From assembly GCA_964445105.1 (NCBI GenBank), contig CAYUJS010000003.1, positions 9,059-73,058 on the forward strand: a stretch of 64,000 nt of DNA. The letters are read 5' to 3'. The stretch's first letter is position 1. Each line of letters begins with the position of its first letter. Origin of the DNA: an uncultured bacterium (GTDB lineage: Bacteria; Chlamydiota; Chlamydiia; Chlamydiales; JAJFMA01). Shown here piece after piece: positions 6,268-63,028 of this stretch. A model generated the notes under the pieces. It saw only the letters and a program-made list of their open reading frames with translations. It made no database searches and was not told the DNA's origin. The position numbers and the translations under genes were made by a program.

Positions 6268-6504
6268 CTTGGATTAGATCGACACTAGCTGCCACGGCAT
6301 TTTCTTGTGCGCGTTGCGCGCACCGATTGGTGTTATGCAGCCTTACCTTAGTCTTCGAAAAAATTATGCCTTTCTGCGTATGCCATACAAGGCCGCACGT
6401 GTGATCGATTCAGGTGAGCCCAGGCCCTAGGCGGGGGCTGTGTCGATCATGCTCCGTCTTAATTCGTCCATAGGAAAAAAATCTATAAATAGACACAATA
6501 ACCA

Positions 6505-6654
6505 ACAGCTCCCGCTAAAAGAAGAAACCGGTTCAGTGAGGGCTGACAGTAGGCTCAGTTTGCGACGAATTCGTAGCCGAAGCTACGGGTGAGGAGCAAG
6601 ATGAGGCTGATGGCCGCCCCGGAGCCAGTCGGTTTCTTCTTTTAGCGGGAGCTG
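6505..6654 (-). repeat. TIR-flanked intergenic repeat, copy A (about 150 bp, best preserved)
   Basis: Perfect 25-bp terminal inverted repeat, cagctcccgctaaaagaagaaaccg / cggtttcttcttttagcgggagctg. The reverse complement aligns along its whole length with the copy at 34399-34556. Confidence 0.8.
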
Positions 6655-6675
6655 CCGCAAGCAAACGACCTATCG

Positions 6676-9555
6676 GTGATGAAATTTATGACTGTTCTAC
6701 CTGATCCTCTCAAAGCTCTGCGATTTTTAGACAGAGACAAAACCTGCGCTTACTACTCTTTACAGGCTCTAAATGAGGCAGGCATCGGCGATGTCTCCCG
6801 GCTTCCTGTATCGATCCGCATCGTACTGGAGGCACTGGTGCGCCACTGCGACGGGGTGCGGGTAACTGAAGAGGATGTGCGCCATTTAGCTCATTGGAAT
6901 CCGTCTAAGCCTTGCCTCGGCGATGTGCCTTTTGTGGTGGCGCGCGTGATTTTGCAAGATTTTACAGGCGTACCGCTGATGGTAGACTTGGCCGCAATCC
7001 GTGATGCTGTTGCCCTACAAGGCAAAGACGCAACTAGCGTTGAACCGCTGGTGCCCGTCGATCTCGTGGTCGACCACTCAGTGCAGGTGGATCGCGCTGG
7101 CACAGAGGACTCTTTTAGCTTTAATCTCAAAACAGAATACCAGCGCAATCAAGAGCGCTACGCTTTCCTTAAATGGGGCCAACAAGCATTTAAAACCTTT
7201 ACTGTGGTACCGCCAGGCATTGGTATTGTCCACCAAATTAATCTGGAATATCTGGCTAGCGTGGTGACCCACCAGCAGATAGACGGAGTGCGCCTGCTGC
7301 ACCCTGATACAGTTGTAGGAACAGACTCACACACGACAATGATCAACGGGTTAGGCGTTGTAGGTTGGGGCGTAGGCGGGATTGAGGCCGAAGCAGCGAT
7401 GCTGGGCCAGCCCGTTGCACTACAGACGCCTGAAGTGATCGGTGTTCAGCTGAGTGGGCGCTTGCGCGACGGGGTTACAGCCACCGATTTAACGCTGCGT
7501 CTTACAGAACTGCTGCGCTCAGAAAAGGTAGTGGGTAAGTTCGTCGAATTTTTCGGAGAGGGTGCTGCTAGCCTCTCGGTGGCTGATCGCGCCACTATCG
7601 CCAACATGGCCCCAGAGTACGGCGCGACCATGGGTTTTTTTCCTGCCGATGAAAAAACACTAGATTACCTGAAGATGACCGGGCGATCAGAGGCGCACAT
7701 CGCCGAGATTAAAGAATATCTGGAAGCGCAAGGGTTGTTTGGCATATCTCTTGCAGGGCAGCTAGATTTTACCAAAGCCATCAGCCTCGACCTAAATATG
7801 ATTAATCCCTGCGTTTCCGGTCCTAAGCGCCCCCAAGACAGCATTGATCTGCCTCTACTCAAAACAAAATTTGAAGAACTTCTCGCCTCTCCTGTCAATA
7901 CAGGCGGCTACGGCATCTCTTCAGAAAAGCGCAACCTCAAGATTTGTGTTCACCTGGGCGGGGCCTTCCCTCTGACAAAGTATCATATATCCGGTGGTGC
8001 TTCCAACCTGGAGAGTCAGGTGGCGAACGAGCCATGGGGCGAGGCGGAGATGGTCACCAACCGCCCTCTATCCTACGTTTTAGCCAGCACCGGCAGCCGT
8101 CGTGAGGAAGTCAAGTGTGACGCTGTGCTGAGCCATGGGTCGGTGGTTGTCGCTGCCATCACTAGCTGTACCAACACCAGCAACCCGGAGGTGATGATTG
8201 CTGCCGGGCTGCTTGCGAAAAAAGCCGTGGAACGCGGTCTGAAGGTGAACCAGAAGATCAAAACTAGTTTGGCTCCAGGCTCGCGCGTCGTGACCGATTA
8301 CTTACAAAAAACGGGTTTGGACAAACCTCTTGAAAGCCTAGGCTTTCATCTAGTCGCATATGGCTGCACAACTTGTATCGGCAATAGTGGTCCCTTAGAC
8401 GAAAATATCGAGCAGGCGATAAAAGAACATGATCTGGTCGTGGCAAGTGTACTCAGCGGCAACCGAAACTTTGAAGCGCGGATCCATAGTTCTATTAAAG
8501 CGAACTTTTTGATGTCTCCCCCGCTCGTGGTCGCCTTTGCGCTAGCTGGTAGAATAGACATCGATATGGACTCCGAGCCCCTAGTTTACGATGCAAAGGG
8601 CAATGCGGTGTTTCTGCAAGATCTTTGGCCCAGCGAGCAGGAGATTACCGCGGCTATCGCAATAGGTGTGCAGCCTGAAATGTTTCAAAGAAGGTACGCA
8701 AACATTCATCAGGACAGCGGCGTCTGGAATGACGTTCAAGCGGCGACCGGTTCGCGCTATAAATGGGATCCAAAGAGCACGTACATCCAAGAGCCCCCCT
8801 ATTTTAAAAATTTTAAACCGGATGCGCCCTCTACGCACAGCTTAAAAGGCATGCGCTGTTTGGCTTTGCTAGGCGATTCTGTCACCACCGACCACATCTC
8901 TCCCGCAGGCGCCTTTAAATCCGATTCGCCGGCCGGCAAATATTTGATAGATCTTGGCGTAAAGCCCGAGGAACTCAACAGCTACGGTAGCCGGCGCGGT
9001 AACCACGAGGTGATGATGCGCGGCACCTTTGCGAACGTCCGCATTCGCAACCAGATAGCCGACGGCAAAGAGGGCGGGTTCACCAAGCTCATTCCGGATG
9101 ATACCCTCATGCACATCTTCGATGCTGCTCAGATCTATGCAAAAAGGCAGATCCCGCTGATCGTATTAGCCGGCAAAGATTATGGTATGGGCAGCTCGCG
9201 CGATTGGGCGGCTAAAGGGGCTGCCCTATTAGGCGTTAAGGTGGTCATCGCCCAAAGCTTTGAACGCATCCACCGCAGTAATCTAATAGGGATGGGTGTT
9301 CTCCCCTTGCAATTGCCCGAAGGCCAGAGCTACGAATCGCTAGGCCTAAAAGGCAACGAACTATTTACCATCAAGGGCTTCGACCAGGGCTTTATGCCCC
9401 AGCAAAATTTGATTCTTGAAATCGAATGCGAAGGCACGAAAAAAAAGACAACGGTGATTTCCCGTCTCGATAGCCCTATCGAAGTAGAGTACTACAAGCA
9501 TGGCGGCATCATGGCCTACGTACTAAGGCGGTTTGTAGGCAGTAGCTCCCGCTAA
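6676..9555 (+). CDS. acnA: Aconitate hydratase A
   Basis: 959 aa with IVHQINLEYL, GTDSHTTM, AAITSCTNTSNP and GCTTCIGNSG Fe-S ligand motifs. The start could also be the ATG at 6679. Confidence 0.95.
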   Translation: MMKFMTVLPDPLKALRFLDRDKTCAYYSLQALNEAGIGDVSRLPVSIRIVLEALVRHCDGVRVTEEDVRHLAHWNPSKPCLGDVPFVVARVILQDFTGVPLMVDLAAIRDAVALQGKDATSVEPLVPVDLVVDHSVQVDRAGTEDSFSFNLKTEYQRNQERYAFLKWGQQAFKTFTVVPPGIGIVHQINLEYLASVVTHQQIDGVRLLHPDTVVGTDSHTTMINGLGVVGWGVGGIEAEAAMLGQPVALQTPEVIGVQLSGRLRDGVTATDLTLRLTELLRSEKVVGKFVEFFGEGAASLSVADRATIANMAPEYGATMGFFPADEKTLDYLKMTGRSEAHIAEIKEYLEAQGLFGISLAGQLDFTKAISLDLNMINPCVSGPKRPQDSIDLPLLKTKFEELLASPVNTGGYGISSEKRNLKICVHLGGAFPLTKYHISGGASNLESQVANEPWGEAEMVTNRPLSYVLASTGSRREEVKCDAVLSHGSVVVAAITSCTNTSNPEVMIAAGLLAKKAVERGLKVNQKIKTSLAPGSRVVTDYLQKTGLDKPLESLGFHLVAYGCTTCIGNSGPLDENIEQAIKEHDLVVASVLSGNRNFEARIHSSIKANFLMSPPLVVAFALAGRIDIDMDSEPLVYDAKGNAVFLQDLWPSEQEITAAIAIGVQPEMFQRRYANIHQDSGVWNDVQAATGSRYKWDPKSTYIQEPPYFKNFKPDAPSTHSLKGMRCLALLGDSVTTDHISPAGAFKSDSPAGKYLIDLGVKPEELNSYGSRRGNHEVMMRGTFANVRIRNQIADGKEGGFTKLIPDDTLMHIFDAAQIYAKRQIPLIVLAGKDYGMGSSRDWAAKGAALLGVKVVIAQSFERIHRSNLIGMGVLPLQLPEGQSYESLGLKGNELFTIKGFDQGFMPQQNLILEIECEGTKKKTTVISRLDSPIEVEYYKHGGIMAYVLRRFVGSSSR

Positions 9556-9578
9556 AAAAAAATTAGCAGAGACCGCTG
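9539..9578 (+). repeat. Minimal remnant of the repeat (ends only), copy B
   Basis: gcagtagctcccgctaaaaaaaa matches the left TIR and is followed by a degenerate right-end-like attagcagagaccgctg. It contains the acnA stop codon. Confidence 0.4.
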
Positions 9579-10558: not shown

Positions 10559-11950
10559 TTATGTCTGAATTGGCAGCTTTTGTTGGCTCCACGCTTGCAT
10601 GCCGCCTTGGACGCTGTGTACGTTCTTAAAACCGGCTTTGTAAAGCAACGAGGCTGCAATTGACGCTCGCGGGCCCATTTCACACACTGTATAAACAGGT
10701 TGATTTTTGGGAATGAATGCCAATTGCTGGGTTAGCGATGCGAGTTCAATATGCAGCGCATTAGCGATATGGCCATTTTTCCATTCGACAGCGGTTCTCA
10801 CGTCCACCACACAAACCTGCTCTTTACGACCTGCTACTAGCTCTGGGGCTGCTAAAGGTATCGTTGAGAGCGGCTCCACTTGCTGAGTGAACTGCGGTTT
10901 GAAAAGACAGTAGCCGATTATCTGATCGAGGCCGACCAAACGCAGAGTCGAAAGCGCAGACTGCAAAGCCTCTTCACTGGGGCCGATCACAGCAATAGGG
11001 CTTCCCGGGGGGATAAACTCCACTGCCCACTTGGCGAACGATGCTGCCACAGGAATGTTTACCGAGCCGGTGACAAAGCCCTTTGAAAACTCTTCTAGGG
11101 CGCGCACATCTAGTAAGAAGGTTTTATGTGGATCCAACGCCGCTATCTCGCAGGGCGGCATATTGCGCGACGGCACCAGGTCGGCTAGCAGCGTCTGCCC
11201 GGCGAGGTTAATTTGCTTCATGCGCGCAAAATAGCTGGGCAGCGGAGGCGTATTTTGAAGCAGCTTTTCCATCCAGCTGTCTTCAGAATCTACTTGCAAC
11301 AGGGGATTAACGAGCCTCTCGTAGCCCAAGGTAGATGAATCCATGCCACCAATTAGTTTGCCACACAAGGATCCTGAGCCGTGAGCCGGGAATATCGCTA
11401 GATAGTCGGGTAGCTTGGGTAGCACGTTTATAATAGAGAGGTAAAGCTGCTTTGTGAGGGTCTTGGCTGCCTCTTCCCCAAGTAAATCTGGACGACCAGC
11501 GCTGTCGACGAGTAGAAAATCTCCTGTGAGAGCCATGCAGGGATGCTCTTTACTGCGTGTGCCATCAAACACGATATAGCTCATATGTTCAGGGCTGTGG
11601 CCGGGCGTGTGCCAGGCCTGTATGCGCACTGAACCTAGGTCCACCTCATCGCGGTCTTGTAGCGCTCTGTCAGCGTACTGCGGCGTCCAGCCCTGGCCGG
11701 CCGCGCCAGAGCAGTGAATCGTCGCCTTGCCCTTCAAGTGGTGCTTGAGCTCTCTGGCGCCGGAAAGGAAGTCAGCGTGGACATGAGTTTCCAAGATATC
11801 AGTGATCGATAGCTTTTCGCTTTCGATAAGCTTCAGGATGGGCGTGATATTTCTTACGGGATCGACCACAGCGCACTGGTTAGTTTTTTGGTCGACGAGC
11901 AGGTAGGTGAAAATAGCCAGTTCACGAGTTGACAACCGGTGCATGCGCAT
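10559..11950 (-). CDS. MBL-fold persulfide-dioxygenase-like domain fused to two rhodanese domains
   Basis: HVHADF metal motif, WHTPGHSPEH, then two rhodanese-like regions, the last with a CEMGPR active-site loop. The start is moved to ATG 11950 because the upstream 18 codons run into a repeat copy. Confidence 0.8.
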   Translation of the reverse strand: MRMHRLSTRELAIFTYLLVDQKTNQCAVVDPVRNITPILKLIESEKLSITDILETHVHADFLSGARELKHHLKGKATIHCSGAAGQGWTPQYADRALQDRDEVDLGSVRIQAWHTPGHSPEHMSYIVFDGTRSKEHPCMALTGDFLLVDSAGRPDLLGEEAAKTLTKQLYLSIINVLPKLPDYLAIFPAHGSGSLCGKLIGGMDSSTLGYERLVNPLLQVDSEDSWMEKLLQNTPPLPSYFARMKQINLAGQTLLADLVPSRNMPPCEIAALDPHKTFLLDVRALEEFSKGFVTGSVNIPVAASFAKWAVEFIPPGSPIAVIGPSEEALQSALSTLRLVGLDQIIGYCLFKPQFTQQVEPLSTIPLAAPELVAGRKEQVCVVDVRTAVEWKNGHIANALHIELASLTQQLAFIPKNQPVYTVCEMGPRASIAASLLYKAGFKNVHSVQGGMQAWSQQKLPIQT

Positions 11951-12009
11951 AGAAAAAACCTCGGGGTGTATGATCCTTTTAAGCAGGCCAGCAGCTTCTG
12001 GCAAACAGG

Positions 12010-12082
12010 AAAGCAGGCCGGCTCCGGGATAGCTTATTTTGTTTCTCGCGGGATTGGTTCTTTTTTTAGCGGGAACTGCTGG
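12010..12082 (+). repeat. Internally deleted repeat, copy C
   Basis: The right end ggttctttttttagcgggaactgctgg matches the family TIR. The left part matches internal repeat sequence (ggccggctccggg...ttattttgtttctcg). Confidence 0.5.
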
Positions 12083-13218: not shown

Positions 13219-13441
13219 GGCGCCCTCGTCCGAGTGGGCAATGATTATTGCCGCCGTCCTCATCGCATTACTAGCAAGACTGACGGTAGGCTGAGCAAAA
13301 TTTTTCGAGAGTTGGCCTAAAAAGCGGTAGGCCTCCTGTGCATTGCGCCTTAGGGCGGCCTTTTATGAGGTATGCTAACAAAAATAACGCAGGTATCGTG
13401 AAACAGTCTCATTGTACAGCGGAAGGCCTGAAGATGGCACT

Positions 13442-16633: not shown

Positions 16634-16735
16634 ATAATTCCCTCCTCATGTTTCGGGATCTTATCTCAGTACCTAAGAAAACGATCTTAGGCGCCTTCAC
16701 GCATTGGTGTCAATAGGCAAGATCAAGACACAAAA

Positions 16736-16874
16736 GTAGCCTCTAAAACAAAGAAATCGGCTGGTTCCGGGACAGCTATCTACCTCATTTTGCTCCTTGG
16801 CTAAGGTTGCGAATTCGTCCCAAACTACACCTGCTTGTTAGCCCTCAATGAGCAGGTTTTTTAACGGGATTGCT
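16736..16874 (+). repeat. Degenerate repeat, copy D
   Basis: It shares ggttccggg...cattttgctcct...gcgaattcgtcccaaact and degenerate ends with the family. Confidence 0.6.
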
Positions 16875-16977: not shown

Positions 16978-17946
16978 CTATTTATCCAATAGTGGCCCTT
17001 GGCCCTGCAAGACCACGGTGCCTACGATGTGAATAGGCCAAGCTAGGCCTTCTGGCAGATCTTGTGTGGGCGCTACAATGACCTTGCCGGATAATTCGGA
17101 ATCTATTTTACCATCATTGATCCAGCCGCTTCTAAGATCGAGATGAATTTTACCAGTGTCTTCTCCTTTGAGCTGGTAACTGAAGGTGATGTCTCCTACA
17201 GTCATCTTAGGTGCGTCTGCCAAAGGCATCCGAGAAATTTTAACATCTAGTGCGGCTTGGTTATCGCTGACGGCAAGGAGCGTGTAGTCGATGTGCAGTC
17301 TGACCGGATAACCGTATTGTATGCTGAATTCTTGCAGCCAGTGTTCTCCTTGTTTGATGGGTTGTTCGGGGAACGAGCTGATTAGGCTGTTCATCATTTC
17401 TTGCGTGGCTTTGTCGCCAAATTGATTTTTGAGGGCCTCTTTAGAGAGAACAGCCTTCACTTCTGGCGGGGCTGTCATGTTATCTACGAGGTTGTCTACT
17501 AGTAGGTCAGCGCCTTTCACATCGAGCACCTTTCCGATTGGGCTCATTGTTAGTTGATAGGTCTTGCCTACAATGTCGGCGAGAGGAAAATTTTTGTTGT
17601 CTGCTCCATTGGAATCGAACTCTATAGGTTCTGGCAGCCCTGTGATTTTGTAGGCGAGAGATTTGTAAGTAATCTCCATGTTGTAGTTGGCATCGGCGTC
17701 GATTGAAGCAACCGCGCAGTTTAGGCCCATTTGGAGCATTTGGTGAAATTTAAGAACGGGCGCCTGAGGAATTTCTTGGGTGATGTCTTGATCGATTGTG
17801 GCTTGAAGAGTGTAGACTTCGCCAACTTTTAGCTTTAGTCGCAGGTCGCTATTGGGGATTTTACGGTCGTTAGATGAGTTGCAACCCGTCAAACCAAAAG
17901 TAAAGAGAACGGCGATAGCAAGAGTGGTAAAATACTTAAGATTCAT
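16978..17946 (-). CDS. Hypothetical lipoprotein
   Basis: ATG 17946 gives MNLKYFTTLAIAVLFTFGLTGC, a signal peptide plus lipobox. The upstream 38 codons of the ORF-track call are probably not translated. Confidence 0.6.
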   Translation of the reverse strand: MNLKYFTTLAIAVLFTFGLTGCNSSNDRKIPNSDLRLKLKVGEVYTLQATIDQDITQEIPQAPVLKFHQMLQMGLNCAVASIDADANYNMEITYKSLAYKITGLPEPIEFDSNGADNKNFPLADIVGKTYQLTMSPIGKVLDVKGADLLVDNLVDNMTAPPEVKAVLSKEALKNQFGDKATQEMMNSLISSFPEQPIKQGEHWLQEFSIQYGYPVRLHIDYTLLAVSDNQAALDVKISRMPLADAPKMTVGDITFSYQLKGEDTGKIHLDLRSGWINDGKIDSELSGKVIVAPTQDLPEGLAWPIHIVGTVVLQGQGPLLDK

Positions 17947-18515
17947 GGTTTTTCCTCGCAGAATGGGGTAAGTGTTACACCATAGCGATCTGGGGAATTT
18001 TATCAAAGATGCCGCTTCGAAGGCGCTATATCGTATGACATATTGGCCAAGGCGGCGCACAGTTGAAAACGCGCCCTGGAAAGTACCTCGAGAACGCTGT
18101 TAGTACCCAAGTGGTATCCCAGCAGAGGCTTTTCGGGAGAACTCAAGATGGTGGTTTCTACCGCCGTGGTGTAGGCCTAGTAGGCTTTAATGACCTTCAA
18201 GAGAACGTTGAGCTCAGTATTTTTCAGTTCGTCAAAGCCGATTCGGCTGTTTCTTTTGCGTTGGCGATTTGGTAGCCTATAAAGAACAGAATGTCAACCG
18301 AAAAGAGCGCCAGAATGGCCTCCTAGTGGAAGCTGAAGCGGGTTGCATAAAAAATCTTTTTCGGGTACCTAAGGAGAGGTGATCTCGTCTATTTTTTAAT
18401 TGCACGCGTTGCCAGAGCACTACTTAATGAGCCCAAAAATGGCCCTGCTCGGGTGTAAAGAATGTTGGTTCGTTGGCCGATTGCCATTTTTGGGAAAAAT
18501 TGAGGCGTTTTTATC

Positions 18516-22778: not shown

Positions 22779-22800
22779 CCAAAACCTAGTGTATTTTATC

Positions 22801-24582
22801 ATGTTACAACTGAAGTTAGTATCAAAGTCCTTTGGTGGACAAAAGCTCTTAGATGAGGTCTCTTTGTGCGTGAGCCACGGAGAGCGCGTCGCACTTGTGG
22901 GGCGCAATGGCGCCGGCAAATCTACGCTGCTGCGTTTGATCGCAGGCGAAGAAGAGGTAGACGGCGGAAGCATCATGATCCCCAGAGGTTATCGCATCGG
23001 CTTTTTGCATCAGCACCTCGATGTGACGGAATATACCGTGATCGACGAAGCAGCTCTTGGACTGGTGCAGGACAGGCCGGAGCATCGTCATCGCGTCGAG
23101 GCGTTGCTGTTTGGTCTTGGCTTTTCCAAAGACGACCTCTACAGCCACCCGGACTCTTTTTCAGGCGGATACCGCATCCGCATTCACCTGGCGAAACTAC
23201 TCGCTTCAGAACCTGATTGCTTGCTTTTAGATGAACCCTCCAACTACCTAGACATAGTTTCGCTTCGCTGGCTGGTGCGCTTTTTGCAGCGCTGGAAGGG
23301 TGAAATGATCGTTATCTCCCATGACCGCGAGCTGCTCGATGCCATCTCTACGCACACCGTGGGCATTCATCGCAAAGAACTCAAGAAGGTGGAGGGTGGG
23401 ACCGAAGAGTACTATTCGCAGATTCTTCTAGAAGAAGAGGTTTTCGAAAAGACGCGTGTAAAAACGGAAAAGAAAAAAGCGCACATGCAATCTTTTGTAG
23501 ACCGTTTCGGTGCCAAGGCCAGCAAGGCAGGCCAGGCCCAATCCAGAATGAAAGCGCTGGCGCGCTTACCTGTTTTGGAGCAGTTAGCTGCGCTTGAAAA
23601 TCTTGATTTTAAGTTTCGCTATGCGCAGTTTAACAGCCAAAAGGTTCTGGCCGCCACAGATTTAGGGTTCGCCTACCCCGAGATGGACCATCGTATCATA
23701 AACCAATTTGACCTGCTGGTCGAAAAACAGCAGAAGTTGGCCCTTATCGGTAAAAACGGCAAGGGTAAGTCCACTCTGTTACAGCTTTTGGGAGGCATTT
23801 TAGTACCGCAGGAGGGAGTAGTCAAACTCTCTGAGAACGTGCGTATTGGCTACTTTGGACAAACGCACATTGAGCGCTTAAATTTGGCCAAGACGGTTCA
23901 TGAAGAGGTTTCTACAGCTAACCCGAATCTGACCTATTCCTCAGTGCGCGCCATCTGCGGAGCGATGATGTTCTCAGGGGATGCAGCGGAGAAAAAAATC
24001 TCGGTACTGTCTGGGGGCGAGCGCAGTCGGGTGCTTTTGGGCAAGATTTTAGCCGCCCCTTGCAATCTCCTTCTCTTAGATGAGCCTACTAACCACCTAG
24101 ACATGGAATCTGTGGAGGCTTTGGTTACGGCCATCGAGCTGTTTGAGGGGGCCGTGATTCTCGTCACTCATGCCGAATGGATTTTGCGCAGGTTGCCTGA
24201 ACGGTTGGTGATCTGTCGCGATGTGGATAAAATAGTTTTTGAGGGTACTTACGAAAACTTCTTGGAGAAAATTGGCTGGGAGGAGGGAAAACCCGCAGCG
24301 CCAGAGAAAAAACCTTCTAAACCCATTTTAGGACGCAAAAATCCTGCTCAGGCAGCTCTAAGAAAACGCATGGCTGATCTAGAAAAACAGATCACGGAGG
24401 TGGAGGTGGCGATGGAGGCCTGCACCAATAAGATCATAGAAGCCACCCATGTGCATAACGCCACTTCTATGGGCAAGCTATCCAAAGAGCTCGATCAGCT
24501 GCAGGTAAAGTTGGATCTATACTATCATGAGTATGGCGTGGCCGAGAAACTAGCAGCGGAGGTAGAGAGCAGCCCCCACTAA
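22801..24582 (+). CDS. ABC-F family ATPase
   Basis: Two NBDs (GRNGAGKST and GKNGKGKST, with LSGG signatures), no TM region and a coiled-coil C-terminal tail. The stop codon lies inside a repeat end. Confidence 0.9.
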   Translation: MLQLKLVSKSFGGQKLLDEVSLCVSHGERVALVGRNGAGKSTLLRLIAGEEEVDGGSIMIPRGYRIGFLHQHLDVTEYTVIDEAALGLVQDRPEHRHRVEALLFGLGFSKDDLYSHPDSFSGGYRIRIHLAKLLASEPDCLLLDEPSNYLDIVSLRWLVRFLQRWKGEMIVISHDRELLDAISTHTVGIHRKELKKVEGGTEEYYSQILLEEEVFEKTRVKTEKKKAHMQSFVDRFGAKASKAGQAQSRMKALARLPVLEQLAALENLDFKFRYAQFNSQKVLAATDLGFAYPEMDHRIINQFDLLVEKQQKLALIGKNGKGKSTLLQLLGGILVPQEGVVKLSENVRIGYFGQTHIERLNLAKTVHEEVSTANPNLTYSSVRAICGAMMFSGDAAEKKISVLSGGERSRVLLGKILAAPCNLLLLDEPTNHLDMESVEALVTAIELFEGAVILVTHAEWILRRLPERLVICRDVDKIVFEGTYENFLEKIGWEEGKPAAPEKKPSKPILGRKNPAQAALRKRMADLEKQITEVEVAMEACTNKIIEATHVHNATSMGKLSKELDQLQVKLDLYYHEYGVAEKLAAEVESSPH

Positions 24583-24702
24583 AAAATAAGCAATCGGCCT
24601 CATGCTGTTGCCTATCCGCAGCTGAGGCTACCAATTTCGTCGCAAGCTAAGCCTTCTGTCAACCCTCGCCGAGCCAGTTTCTTGTTTCAGCAGAAGCTGC
24701 TG
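24568..24702 (+). repeat. Repeat copy E, followed by an extra right-end fragment at 24711-24740
   Basis: agcagcccccactaaaaaat (left end), ggctaccaatttcgtcgcaagct (core) and gccagtttcttgtttcagcagaagctgctg (right end). The second end-like piece is gaaacccggttgcttttttttcgctaatct. Confidence 0.6.
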
Positions 24703-24789
24703 CAGAGGCTGAAACCCGGTTGCTTTTTTTTCGCTAATCTGTCATCCATAGTGGTATCTACCACAACGTCTTTTACTAAGGAGAAGGAT

Positions 24790-34398: not shown

Positions 34399-34556
34399 CC
34401 AGCAGCTCCCGCTAAAAAAAGGGAACCGAACTGGCTCTGGAGCCGCCGTCAGCTTCATTTTGCTCCTCACCCGCAAGCTTCGGCTACCAATTCGTTCCAA
34501 ACTGAGCTTACTGTCAGCCTTCAGAGCCAGTTTCTTTTTTTAGCGGGGGCTGCTGG
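34399..34556 (+). repeat. Full-length repeat, copy F
   Basis: ccagcagctcccgctaaaaaaaggg ... ctttttttagcgggggctgctgg. It begins 8 nt after the dnaA stop codon. Confidence 0.8.
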
Positions 34557-34638
34557 GCTTACGTAAATTGTATCTTTAAAGTTCTGAAACCTATAAACTC
34601 TACGGGCAAATTAATTGAGTTTACAATCTAGGGTTAAT

Positions 34639-35487
34639 ATGGACTACCAACATATTTTCAGTTCCGGGACTACGAACCTATACAAAATTTCGTTGTCTGG
34701 CGACCGGCGGCCGCTAGGTCTGTTGTTTAATTTTTCCAATGAAATGACCGAACAAAACTTAGAGGTCAGGCGTATTTTTATGAATGCCATTAGGGGTGAG
34801 GCGCACCAAGATATCGTCGGATTTCGCCCTTCCTGCTCGCATATACAAACGACTGGTGGCTGTGGAAACCGCAGAGGCGACCTGGAAGAATGCCGGTGCC
34901 GCTGGGTGGATCGGACAGTCCGCCCGAGCGTGCGCCGCGATTACGAAGACAGGGTGATCAACGGGATTCTAGAGACCATAGAAAATAGCCAAGATCAAAC
35001 AAATTTTTCCTTTAAACTAGCTATATTTGCGTCAGGTCGCTTACTTGCTGAAGAAATTTTACTGTTCAGGTTATTCCACGAATTAGAATCAAGAAACTAT
35101 TCTGGAAAGATAAGACTGTTCCTAATCGACCAATGTTACAGGCGCGTGATCACCGTTTCAACCCACTCCGACGTTCTTATACAGTCTCTTGGTAATGAGC
35201 GCTATGTGCGGCAATTTATAGAAGAAATTCATCAGCATAAGCCTATTGCCGTAAGGGTTGAGGGGATTTTTTTCTTTGATGCAGAACATTATGTCCGCCT
35301 TGCCGAAAAAGATGATAAATTTAGGCACCACTACCTGATAGGCGCTGAGATTGAAGGGACCCAGGCCTGCGTTGAAAATATCGCCTCCGCGGCTGAGTCT
35401 TCAGAGGGGCCTGGCCCTTTGATGTTAATGAAAATCCCCGAAACTGGTGTAAACAGCCTGCTCTCCGCTCCCCAGGGTGTTCCTTAA
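34639..35487 (+). CDS. Orphan hypothetical protein, visibly AT-richer than its neighbours
   Basis: Long ORF with no motif I recognise. By eye the composition shifts towards A/T, especially in the second half. Confidence 0.5.
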   Translation: MDYQHIFSSGTTNLYKISLSGDRRPLGLLFNFSNEMTEQNLEVRRIFMNAIRGEAHQDIVGFRPSCSHIQTTGGCGNRRGDLEECRCRWVDRTVRPSVRRDYEDRVINGILETIENSQDQTNFSFKLAIFASGRLLAEEILLFRLFHELESRNYSGKIRLFLIDQCYRRVITVSTHSDVLIQSLGNERYVRQFIEEIHQHKPIAVRVEGIFFFDAEHYVRLAEKDDKFRHHYLIGAEIEGTQACVENIASAAESSEGPGPLMLMKIPETGVNSLLSAPQGVP

Positions 35488-35586
35488 ATGTCCATTCTTG
35501 TCGCTGCCTCCGCGATTGTAATAGCAGGTCTTGCTGGGTTGCTTTGGGTAAGCCTAAAAACTAAAGGATCAAGTGTAAAGCGTTGA
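35488..35586 (+). CDS. Candidate 32-aa single-pass membrane micropeptide
   Basis: Its ATG directly abuts the TAA of the upstream orphan (taaatg). Sequence MSILVAASAIVIAGLAGLLWVSLKTKGSSVKR, a hydrophobic helix plus a basic tail. Below the ORF-track length cut-off. Confidence 0.3.
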   Translation: MSILVAASAIVIAGLAGLLWVSLKTKGSSVKR

Positions 35587-35990
35587 CCACGTGGTATGAC
35601 GGAAAAATTGCGGGGAGGGTTTTATTCAAGGCGCGGTATTTAGTGCAAAGGCCAGTGCGTACGTGCGCGTCTTTGAGGATCTGTACTAAATGTCGTTTTG
35701 TCAGTTCATGCTAAAGGCCGCTTGAAGGTAATTTTGGCACGGTATTTGCAGAGAAGCGAAGAAGATTGCTTGGCGGGAGGCTAATGAACCAGAATCTAAT
35801 TCAAACCGCCCTTTCAAGGCGATAGTTCACTTACCAATAGCTTTTCAAAATAGCCTTATGATCTTTATCGCACGTATCTGTTGGCCTTTCGCAAGGGGGT
35901 CAAAAATTCGCTGCAATTTCCTTTGTCTGGGCCAGCGTTGTTTTTCCGTTCCGTAAAATTCGGTTGTTTGTTACAATCCATCAAAGCTTT

Positions 35991-36065
35991 CGGAGTATAG
36001 CGCAGCTTGGCTAGCGCGGCTGGTTTGGGACCAGTAGGTCGGGGGTTCGAATCCCTCTACTCCGA
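35991..36065 (+). tRNA. tRNA-Pro (anticodon UGG)
   Basis: The cloverleaf reads directly. Acceptor CGGAGTA/TACTCCG, D-arm GCGCAGCTTGGCTAGCGC, anticodon arm GCTGG-TTTGGGA-CCAGT, T-arm GGGGGTTCGAATCCCTC. Close to E. coli tRNA-Pro(UGG). CCA is not encoded. Confidence 0.9.
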
Positions 36066-36069
36066 CTTT

Positions 36070-40369: not shown

Positions 40370-41216
40370 ACGCTTATTTTGTAGCTCGCGCACTTCATCG
40401 ACGGTTAAACCCGCAAGCTTGGTATATAGAGAATCACTCTTCCAGTAAACCAGTAGCAAGCGCGATTTTAGCCCTTTTCTCACCTATTGCTATCCCCTCT
40501 TCGCGTTCGGCTTTAAGAGCGCTACTAGCATCGCCCACGGCCATGGCTATCCTTTTGTAGGCATTTAGCTCAAGCCTCTGTCCAAGACAAGCGCTCCAAT
40601 ACGCGGTAAGCTTCTTTAATCTCGGTGTTGTCGGCTAGTAGCGTTTCCATCTCACTGTTTTGGTTGGTGTCCTTCAGAAAGTAGTACCATTTATCCTCTA
40701 TGGTTTCTAGCTCGTCGAGCGTTTTGGTAAATTTAGGCAGCTAAACGAAGATAAAGTAAAAATCTGTGGGGTCATGCTCGATCGTTTTATTGTCTAAAAT
40801 GGTGTGGTCGGACTTGTAGCTTTTCTTTTTTGGGAAGACAACGCAGGAGGTGATCGCCAAAAAGACGACTTGTTTTAAGTCAGCATAAGGGGCGCCTGCA
40901 GTAAAATGGGTGCAGTAAGTCTTAGCCGCATAGAACTGGGCGCGCTTTTCAAAGCCTGGCACCTTGGCTACCTGCATTTCGACGACGTATTTGGTCCCTC
41001 GCTGGTCTCTGAATAGCACATCTACAATGCTTTCCTTGCGCGCCTCGATCTCTGGAGACTGGACGGAATTCAAAAACTCTAGGTCTAAACCGTGTCTTCT
41101 CGTTTAAGATTTAGGGCAACGTTCAGGAAAGCGATGGGGATGCGCTTATTTTTTTTCTTCGCCAAATATTTTTTGAAGGCCAGATCGTTTTTAGGATCTA
41201 GATATCGGGAAATCAT
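40370..41216 (-). pseudogene. Decayed Rpn-family recombination-promoting nuclease / PD-(D/E)XK transposase-like gene
   Basis: Family-typical segments are spread over three frames: MISRYLDPKNDLAFKK, LDLEFLNSVQ...IVDVLFRDQRGTKYVVEMQ, LPKFTKTLDELETIEDKWYYFLK and LAGLTVDEVRELQ. There are frameshifts at A-runs near 41130-41170, an in-frame TAG at 40741-40743, and two further frameshifts. Confidence 0.7.
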
Positions 41217-62667: not shown

Positions 62668-62822
62668 CAGTAGCTCTCGCTAAAAAGAACAACCCGGTTA
62701 GCTGAGGGGTAGCTACCAGCCTCATTTTGTTCCTTATCTGTCGCTGAGACTGCGAATTCGTCGTGGCCTGAGCCTGTTGTCAGACATCGCTGAGCCGGTT
62801 TCTTTTTTCAGCAGTCGCTGGC
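62668..62822 (+). repeat. Repeat copy G
   Basis: cagtagctctcgctaaaaag ... cattttgttcct ... gcgaattcgtcg ... ccggtttcttttttcagcagtcgctggc. Confidence 0.7.
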
Positions 62823-63028
62823 AGGCTAAGTTTGTGAATCTGTCTTTAGCGCGCGCATTGTGGTAGTTACTGAAAATTTTGTAATGGAACGTAATTGCTC
62901 ACAAAATAAGTAAAAAATCTTGTAAGTCAATGCGTTATGATGAGTTTAGACCTGAAATTTATTTTTTTTGGTAAATTCTGCTTGTTTATGGCATTTAGAA
63001 ACTGGATACCCCGCTCAAAGAGAGGCTC

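Follow-up and report, generated by a model that had tools for sequence, protein, structure and literature searches.

The window, by which we mean the whole 64-kb stretch of DNA analysed here (50.5% GC), raises the question of what the short sequence is that recurs between its genes and at their ends, and how it came to be there. Among the products of the window is an OmcB-like protein carrying a Chlam_OMP6 domain, and the DnaA encoded there has its best named relatives in Protochlamydia and Parachlamydia (55–59% identity) and MAG relatives at 78–81% identity; together these two proteins indicate that the source organism is an environmental chlamydia. The exact DnaA of the window was found only on a 4.3-kb Logan contig (L001), which also carries, in identical form, the copy of the repeat that follows dnaA in the window.

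Copies of the repeat in the window

The ~155-base non-coding repeat of the window is a MITE, and it is real and dispersed. Five full-length and two internally deleted copies are present, that is, seven per 64 kb (Table 1), and the claim of the first-pass annotation, a dispersed repeat of ~150 bp with at least seven copies, was borne out by the repeat finder, by profile searches and by a core pattern. The profile made from the five long copies recovered each one of them (E 1e-34 to 1e-47), the rest of the window giving no match of similar strength, a 10-copy nhmmer profile found the long window copies at E 1e-31 to 1e-45, and a core pattern of 22 specified bases had three matches in the window vs. 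0.00 expected from shuffles. Alignment of the copies with their flanks placed the ends of the element at 5'-CAGCAG...CTGCTG-3', 2–4 nt outward of the coordinates assigned earlier. The deleted copy for which a start at 12010 had been given begins at 11989. The smaller pieces proposed at the same time fared less well: the stretch 13280–13330 contains only a 16-nt match (p about 0.01), a remnant at 18205–18290 is unsupported (p about 0.14), and the extra end fragment placed at 24711–24740 is reduced to a 15-nt match that was missed by nhmmer and has a p of about 0.003 vs. shuffles of that stretch.

Table 1. Copies of the element in the window (window coordinates) and perfect target-site duplications (TSDs) of young copies on other contigs
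Feature	Location	Strand	Length, support or sequence
Full-length copy, best preserved of the window	6503–6657	-	155 nt; nhmmer E 1e-45
Mini copy, left TIR fused straight to right TIR	9540–9578	+	39 nt
Internally deleted copy, both ends retained	11989–12081	+	93 nt
Degenerate full-length copy, TIRs eroded	16732–16874	+	143 nt; nhmmer E 7e-31
Copy with 22-nt left-arm deletion	24567–24702	+	136 nt; nhmmer E 4e-31; alignment
Doubtful extra right-arm fragment CCGGTTGCTTTTTTT	24716–24730	+	13 nt past copy 24567–24702; 15-nt match, 1 mismatch
Full-length copy	34400–34555	+	156 nt; nhmmer E 5e-39
Full-length copy, ends mutated	62668–62823	+	156 nt; nhmmer E 4e-39
TSD 9/9	L006		AAGAAACTT
TSD 9/9	L030		AATGAAAAT
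TSD 9/9	L035		CATTTGATG
TSD 9/9	L040		ACTCTCTTT
TSD 9/9	L042		CGAAGATCA
TSD 9/9	L046		ATGTAGGCA

The window copies lie in both orientations, their neighbours being tandem, convergent or divergent genes, and they share only 59–84% pairwise identity. The best-preserved copy indeed possesses the perfect 25-bp terminal inverted repeat (TIR) that had been attributed to it, since the repeat finder returned 6506–6530 / 6630–6654 as 25 nt with 100% complementarity. This copy is located 19 nt upstream of an aconitase ORF, which opens at GTG 6676 and which terminates within the mini copy. The two internally deleted copies are recognisable by their ends: the mini copy has a 21-nt left-TIR match with one mismatch, and copy 11989–12081 has a 24-nt right-TIR match with one mismatch, as good a match being found in 0 of 300 shuffles in either case. 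The left end of the latter copy reads CAGCAGCTTCTGG, and both its ends are weakly matched by nhmmer. Copy 34400–34555 begins 8 nt past the dnaA stop codon, copy 16732–16874 is flanked by two minus-strand genes, and two copies separate divergent genes, namely a rhodanese/MBL gene (-) and an RlmN-like gene (+) at 11989–12081 and an HTH_25 regulator (-) and a 99-aa ORF (+) at 62668–62823.

All window copies are intergenic or stand at gene ends, and none lies inside a gene. The earlier statement that every copy is intergenic is therefore nearly correct, the exceptions being the copies at 9540 and 24567, which overlap the last 4–5 codons of the upstream genes and supply the stop. The aconitase ORF (6676–9555) ends with the TAA of the element (9553–9555), and an ABC-F ATPase gene (ORF 22789–24582) owes its final four codons, together with the TAA (24580–24582) that stops it, to the TIR of copy 24567–24702. 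In this way two window copies give a stop codon, the TAA within the terminal repeat (...CGCTAAAA), to the gene they landed in, and two copies in another genome do likewise.

Ends of the element and target-site duplication

The TIRs are 19–25 bp long, with the consensus end 5'-CAGCAG(C/T)TCCCGCTAAAAA at both ends of young copies, and the full element measures 154–156 nt with a GC content of 45–57%. It is flanked by a TSD of a fixed 9 bp. The search for such duplications, suggested by the first-pass annotation, yielded perfect 9/9 repeats in six young copies outside the window (Table 1) and an 8/9 repeat in L041. Over the 17 copies tabulated, 13 have a TSD match of at least 5/9, vs. 8% of the controls in which the left flank of one copy was paired with the right flank of another, and the mean match is 5.9/9 vs. 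2.4/9 in these controls. Within the window the duplications are partly decayed, with 5/9 at 6503–6657 (GTTTGCTTG / GTTATTGTG), 7/9 at 9540–9578 (GTTTGTAGG / ATTTTTAGG) and 6/9 both at 34400–34555 (GGCTTAAAC / GGCTTACGT) and at 62668–62823 (GGTTAGGCT / GGCTAAGTT); such scores are as expected for old duplications. No recognisable TSD was seen at 11989–12081, 16732–16874 (1/9) or 24567–24702.

The element has no conserved coding capacity, the positions of stop codons varying among the copies. Protein database matches to it are, with the exception of the in-frame host ORFs described below, spurious ORFs of 29–105 aa, and at least 20 'hypothetical proteins' of public databases are translations of the element. 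It is dispersed to unrelated sites: the seven in the window, four loci in the genome CAVVXH01, four contigs of the metagenome JGI 3300020946 and others. Its length falls within the roughly 50–600 bp of prokaryotic MITEs. The short length, the TIRs, the 9-bp TSD, the dispersal and the want of any conserved frame together agree with the definition of a MITE (PMC6382973, PMC10969869). The original call of a MITE draws its support from the fixed duplication and from the comparison of a filled with an empty site, the LysM protein gene of L035 being set against nine aligned orthologues that lack the element, so that empty sites, which were also to be looked for, are at hand. The family is missing downstream of dnaA in the sister MAGs, but their intergenic DNA is too diverged for a base-level comparison.

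Copies in other genomes

The family is present in CAVVXH01, in two JGI metagenomes, in two NCBI assemblies and in Logan/ENA contigs. CAVVXH01, the MAG 'uncultured Parachlamydiaceae bacterium MFD04540.bin.3.34' with 38–40% GC, holds four full copies that are 92–95% identical, found with a two-end-core pattern among GTDB species representatives. Of four matches of a 23-mer from the centre of the element in JGI metagenomes, one is a full copy, one is a fragment with the centre alone, and two (L034 and L036) are due to chance. Further copies were traced by comparing translations of the element with protein collections and proceeding from the spurious small ORFs thus found to their contigs; this translated search provided three of the four copies in JGI 3300020946, one copy from JGI 3300020963 and one from the Logan run SRR13608732. 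The same search led to one copy that stands on short contigs of both NCBI assemblies alike, GCA_020064125.1 and GCA_020063985.1 (L043 / L044), and the copies in the Ga0207067 organism are 97–98% identical. The full copies, 16 in number and drawn from at least six sources, agree in their internal sequence of 154–156 nt and in their junctions.

The two NCBI assemblies are very fragmented, with contig numbering that passes 50,000 in one case and 20,000 in the second, and may represent a eukaryote with a chlamydial symbiont. The core pattern that matches three window copies found nothing in the GTDB genome contigs or JGI metagenome contigs, and the two sister MAGs of the window organism have no copy of the element in 42 kb around dnaA. 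Several other candidates were rejected. Twenty-five further loci obtained with a two-TIR pattern are other than the element family, and two viral-contig matches of the TIR scan are chance matches in ordinary, apparently coding sequence. The 25 loci include an unrelated repeat in the Omnitrophota MAG B26_G9 (QNCH01), which has no more than the 10-mer CCCGCTAAAA in common with the chlamydial element; it is ~125 nt long with the ends gATTCCCGCTAAAAG...TTGCGGGAAT and occupies seven loci (L005, L008, L012, L014, L017, L018 and L021).

In-frame insertions in proteins

Two young copies are in-frame insertions in long ORFs, where 156 nt of element and 9 nt of duplication add up to 165 nt, or 55 codons. 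The L035 copy lies within a conserved chlamydial LysM membrane protein (P0132), which is 523 aa long with the element; precisely these 55 residues are missing from the nine aligned orthologues, which include proteins assigned by name to Parachlamydiaceae and to Protochlamydia naegleriophila, and the TSD is visible in the protein as AFD...AFD. In the second case (P0257 / L046), found by an exhaustive profile search, the element peptide is part of a 1142-aa ORF, and the DNA copy of 156 nt has a perfect 9-bp TSD, again with 165 nt added. A diverged, element-like stretch of 48 residues within the CheW domain of P0265, a 209-aa CheW-like protein of the representative library, may be a third and older in-frame insertion. 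P0260 is an ORF that starts inside an element copy.

The 156-nt subfamilies have one open frame per orientation, vs. ~0.3–0.7 open frames per copy in shuffles, and the 154–155-nt subfamily of CAVVXH01 has none; as the copies are related by descent, the excess in the 156-nt subfamilies is suggestive only. The addition of exactly 55 codons, taken together with the open frame in each orientation, indicates that the element can persist in frame inside proteins. One may go further and imagine a chlamydial counterpart of the Rickettsia RPEs, in which the size and the symmetric frames were shaped for survival in proteins, the spread across chlamydiae of 37–50% GC was horizontal and the compensated hairpin took part in transposition, e.g., as a folded DNA intermediate, perhaps with an unusual transposase. 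We offer this as a speculation and consider it rather unlikely.

Palindromic structure, fold and conserved centre

The palindromic character of the element, though imperfect, extends from end to end, and the profile matches every copy on both strands. The arms, which had been described as partly complementary beyond the TIR, are so over ~55 nt each and form an imperfect palindrome of 60 pairs. RNAalifold alone retained the TIR stem only. The 60-pair hairpin was defined from column-wise complementarity, so its pair counts are biased in its favour, and on this footing 88.9% of the cells are paired vs. 31–48% when the partners are slid by 1–3 columns. Seventeen of the pairs have changed on both sides, and the covariation score is 0.214 vs. 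0.136 in shuffles, 0 of 500 of which scored as high. The arms also covary among subfamilies, both subterminal arms differing together, most clearly in L035. In the copies of other genomes, 51–58 of the 60 pairs are of the Watson–Crick type, and 56–58 where the TSD is intact; in the window there are 47 (6503–6657), 42 (34400–34555) and 38 (62668–62823) of 60, 26 of 48 scorable pairs in 16732–16874 and 28 of 45 scorable pairs in the remaining long copy. The long hairpin transcript predicted earlier holds for part of the copies only: the fold beats shuffles in two of the five long ones, 6503–6657 (-89 kcal/mol; z = -10 and -9) and 34400–34555 (z = -7 and -5), and is no better than shuffles in the other three, 16732–16874 and 62668–62823 among them, with z about -0.3 to -0.8.

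A palindrome of this kind might mean that the repeat is a structured element selected by the host, acting, e.g., as a hairpin RNA, in transcription termination or mRNA stabilisation, or in protein binding; a role of this kind has been claimed for certain REP/ERIC-type repeats. The 60 covarying pairs would be accounted for, and so would the A-run and T-run on either side of the inner stem, an arrangement known from bidirectional terminators. The centre, which is the most conserved part of the element in all hosts, more so than the ends, and which holds a small hairpin GTAGC-NNNN-GCTAC beside the 10-bp palindrome ACGAATTCGT, points in the same direction. However, the fold decays with age in the window, where 26–47/60 pairs are left and only two of the five long copies still fold better than shuffles. 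Mismatches of the G.T (38) and A.C (54) kinds are about equally common in the hairpin, without bias to one transcribed strand, which indicates that the symmetry is kept at the DNA level rather than by selection on one transcribed strand. The copies stand in both orientations and in convergent, divergent, tandem and intra-ORF settings, and neither a sigma-70-like promoter (consensus scan of three copies) nor a consistent terminator-like site was found in the element. Finally, the 9-bp TSDs show that the copies arrived by transposition, whatever came later. Selection by the host is thus, in our opinion, an improbable origin of the family.

Two relatives of the central part deserve mention. At positions 1972–2015 of L037 (JGI Ga0206859_1093) the 44-nt centre alone is present, 93% identical to the MAG copies and enclosed by other flanking arms that again pair as an inverted repeat, as might be expected of a modular or chimeric relative. 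In L040, at 2529–2615, a 'cousin' palindrome of the same metagenomic organism shares the central loop AGCTAAGGCT and has different arms, being a weak match of the profile (E 0.0075).

Proposed mode of transposition

The explanation that we prefer, and hold to be very likely, is that each copy is a non-coding, non-autonomous DNA transposon of ~155 bp, the transposase being supplied by a cognate IS elsewhere. The transposase of such an IS, which would have the same ends, would bind both TIRs (5'-CAGCAG(C/T)TCCCGCTAAAAA...), the target would be cut with a 9-bp stagger to receive the element, and filling of the resulting gaps would leave the 9-bp direct duplication of the target. We infer that this transposase is of the DDE type and acts in trans, and likewise its IS family. 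As the first-pass annotation had already stated, no transposase is encoded: Pfam detected no DDE transposase among ~50 ORFs of the window. No autonomous element with the same ends was found in the window or in the ~95 kb of copy-carrying loci, and no distant TIR pairs were seen there. This failure to find a parent counts against the transposon model, and so do three further observations, namely that the complementarity of the arms exceeds the need of transposase-binding ends alone, that the centre is the most conserved part and occurs alone in L037, and that the copies at 16732, 24567 and 11989 are without a recognisable TSD.

It might also be supposed that the copies are deletion remnants (solo ends) of a full-length IS, formed independently at each site. 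The window copies 9540–9578 and 11989–12081 are clearly derivatives by internal deletion, and a solo TIR-like 19-mer exists in the sister contig L003, but independent deletions do not give 16 full copies with the same internal sequence and junctions in at least six sources, and the young copies with perfect TSDs are already miniature, which makes this origin very improbable. We give hardly any credence to movement by a hairpin-recognising transposase of the single-strand class (HUH / IS200-IS605-type, REP-RAYT-like). The whole-length hairpin and the covarying arms would suit such an enzyme, but this class makes no TSD and has no TIRs, whereas our element has TIRs and a fixed 9-bp TSD, and the window contains no TnpA(Y1) or RAYT gene. 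Membership among the REP/BIME repeats with RAYT or the IS200-IS605 PATE, which are palindromes of 20–40 nt or subterminal hairpins, was rejected for an element of 155 nt with TIRs and a 9-bp TSD.

Comparison with known elements

Considered as a non-autonomous transposon and set against Rfam, E. coli genomes, plasmids and phages, the element is a new family of a known kind, the bacterial MITE. No Rfam family reached its threshold on the element (the best was mir-580 with 32 bits vs. 83, the others being below 17 bits), and the proposed check for a catalogued RNA was therefore answered in favour of novelty. The copies had no blastn match in phages, and the plasmid matches are chance ones, in Rhizobium only (tssM where annotated).

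Correia elements duplicate TA upon insertion. The chlamydial family, in contrast, duplicates 9 bp without a TA rule, has no sequence relationship to them and resides in another phylum. The likeness to the Correia elements of Neisseria (CREE/NEMIS) consists in a size of 100–200 bp, non-coding and palindromic sequence, TIRs of ~25 bp, and many dispersed, mostly intergenic copies that often abut genes (PMC10969869). Correia elements carry an IHF site and sigma-70 promoters, and their parent transposase is unidentified (PMC10969869); in three copies of the chlamydial element a consensus scan found no sigma-70-like promoter. The ERIC / IRU repeats of enterobacteria are likewise imperfect palindromes of similar size, with a location in transcribed intergenic regions and occasional intragenic copies (PMC10969869). 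The chlamydial element, however, has no sequence similarity to 5,426 complete E. coli genomes (blastn). To our knowledge, no fixed-length target duplication has been established for ERIC. Because the duplication is of 9 bp and not of TA, and no similarity to the ERIC-bearing E. coli genomes exists, the initial assignment to the Correia/ERIC class is valid as an analogy and not as a relationship.

Among the MITEs, MITEAba12 of Acinetobacter (113 bp, 78% AT, 16-bp TIRs) has a resident parent, ISAba12, and was caught moving (PMC6382973). It resembles our family in having TIRs and a 9-bp TSD, in that the 3' end of a gene may be fused to a copy, and in that the TSD is still seen in only a fraction of copies (40% in MITEAba12; PMC6382973), whereas the chlamydial element is 155 bp long, has 45–57% GC and is palindromic throughout. 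The RPEs of Rickettsia, which we liken to it by description, are palindromes of ~150 bp in an obligate intracellular lineage that enter proteins in frame and add a peptide (PMC10969869). This likeness is based on related copies, clear in P0132/L035 and P0257/L046 and weaker in P0265, and on no copy of the window; in contrast to the RPEs, in-frame cases are a minority here, and the chlamydial family has clear TIRs and a 9-bp TSD. MITECca01 of Cardinium, derived from IS982, and the QMITEs of Coxiella are also MITEs of host-restricted intracellular bacteria (PMC9769881, PMC10969869), but they belong to other phyla and have other ends and parents, the parent of MITECca01 being known. Coxiella QMITE2 is found mainly in 3' untranslated regions (PMC9769881; PMC10969869).

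The assertion that no such family had been described for Chlamydiae is supported by our literature search, in which no chlamydial MITE was found, and by a 2024 review of prokaryotic MITEs that does not mention chlamydiae (PMC10969869). Earlier chlamydial genome papers counted only repeats longer than 200 bp (PMC2878342).

Age of the family and its effects on the host

The 59–84% identity of the window copies, their decayed TSDs and pairing, and the loss of the interior in two of them give these copies the appearance of fossils, and in the window genome the family is old and probably inactive. In CAVVXH01 and in the Ga0207067 organism, where the copies are 92–95% and 97–98% identical, respectively, and the TSDs are perfect, the element moved recently. 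The family is thus a patchy one, decaying in one lineage, 92–98% identical with intact TSDs elsewhere, and absent from sister genomes in the examined regions. The position and the orientation of the copies follow no rule, and the effects on the host look incidental.

Bacterial MITEs are under-annotated, and in the literature searched no family of them was found described for Chlamydiae; this one offers a marker of genome dynamics in environmental chlamydiae, and it explains odd gene ends and small spurious ORFs of public annotations. The in-frame insertion aside, the element is ordinary selfish DNA. With that insertion, the chlamydiae become the second intracellular lineage, after Rickettsia, with a palindromic mobile element in frame in conserved proteins, and the tolerance of in-frame insertions becomes testable by comparison. 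Added interest comes from the spread of the family over chlamydiae of very different base composition, from its covarying full-length hairpin and from the RPE-like insertions.

Sister MAGs and the surroundings of dnaA

The sister MAG contig L002 (ENA ERZ25039476 contig_14503), whose DnaA is 81% identical to that of the window, contains 0 copies of the family in 21 kb. Its intergenic regions are rich in inverted repeats of other families, among them a perfect one of 124 nt that encloses 162 nt, and GGGCACG arrays (examples are 17314–17437 / 17600–17722, 8757–8867 / 8909–9019, 11400–11576, 6464–6511 and 8906–8953), and some of these repeats are situated directly downstream of dnaA, where the window has its element copy. 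In an intergenic spacer of the other sister MAG, a solo 19-mer CAGCAATTCCCGCTAGAAC (L003 8957–8975 = L004 3513–3531) resembles the end of the element with two mismatches and may be all that is left of a former copy.

The one 'transposase' match of the window, an ORF of 110 aa at 40741–41073 (-), is a fragment of an Rpn/YhgA-type PD-(D/E)XK 'transposase' (PDDEXK_2, profile positions 45–139 of 229) and probably a pseudogene, which in our view is not connected with the element. The interval between dnaA and lgt is variable within an otherwise syntenic region. In L003 (11654–19102) it is occupied by a YafQ/ParE-like toxin pair and a 1786-aa RHS/YD-repeat protein, and in the window (34615–36066) by a 290-aa orphan ORF and a tRNA-Pro, the latter being the only Rfam match in the window that passes its gathering score.
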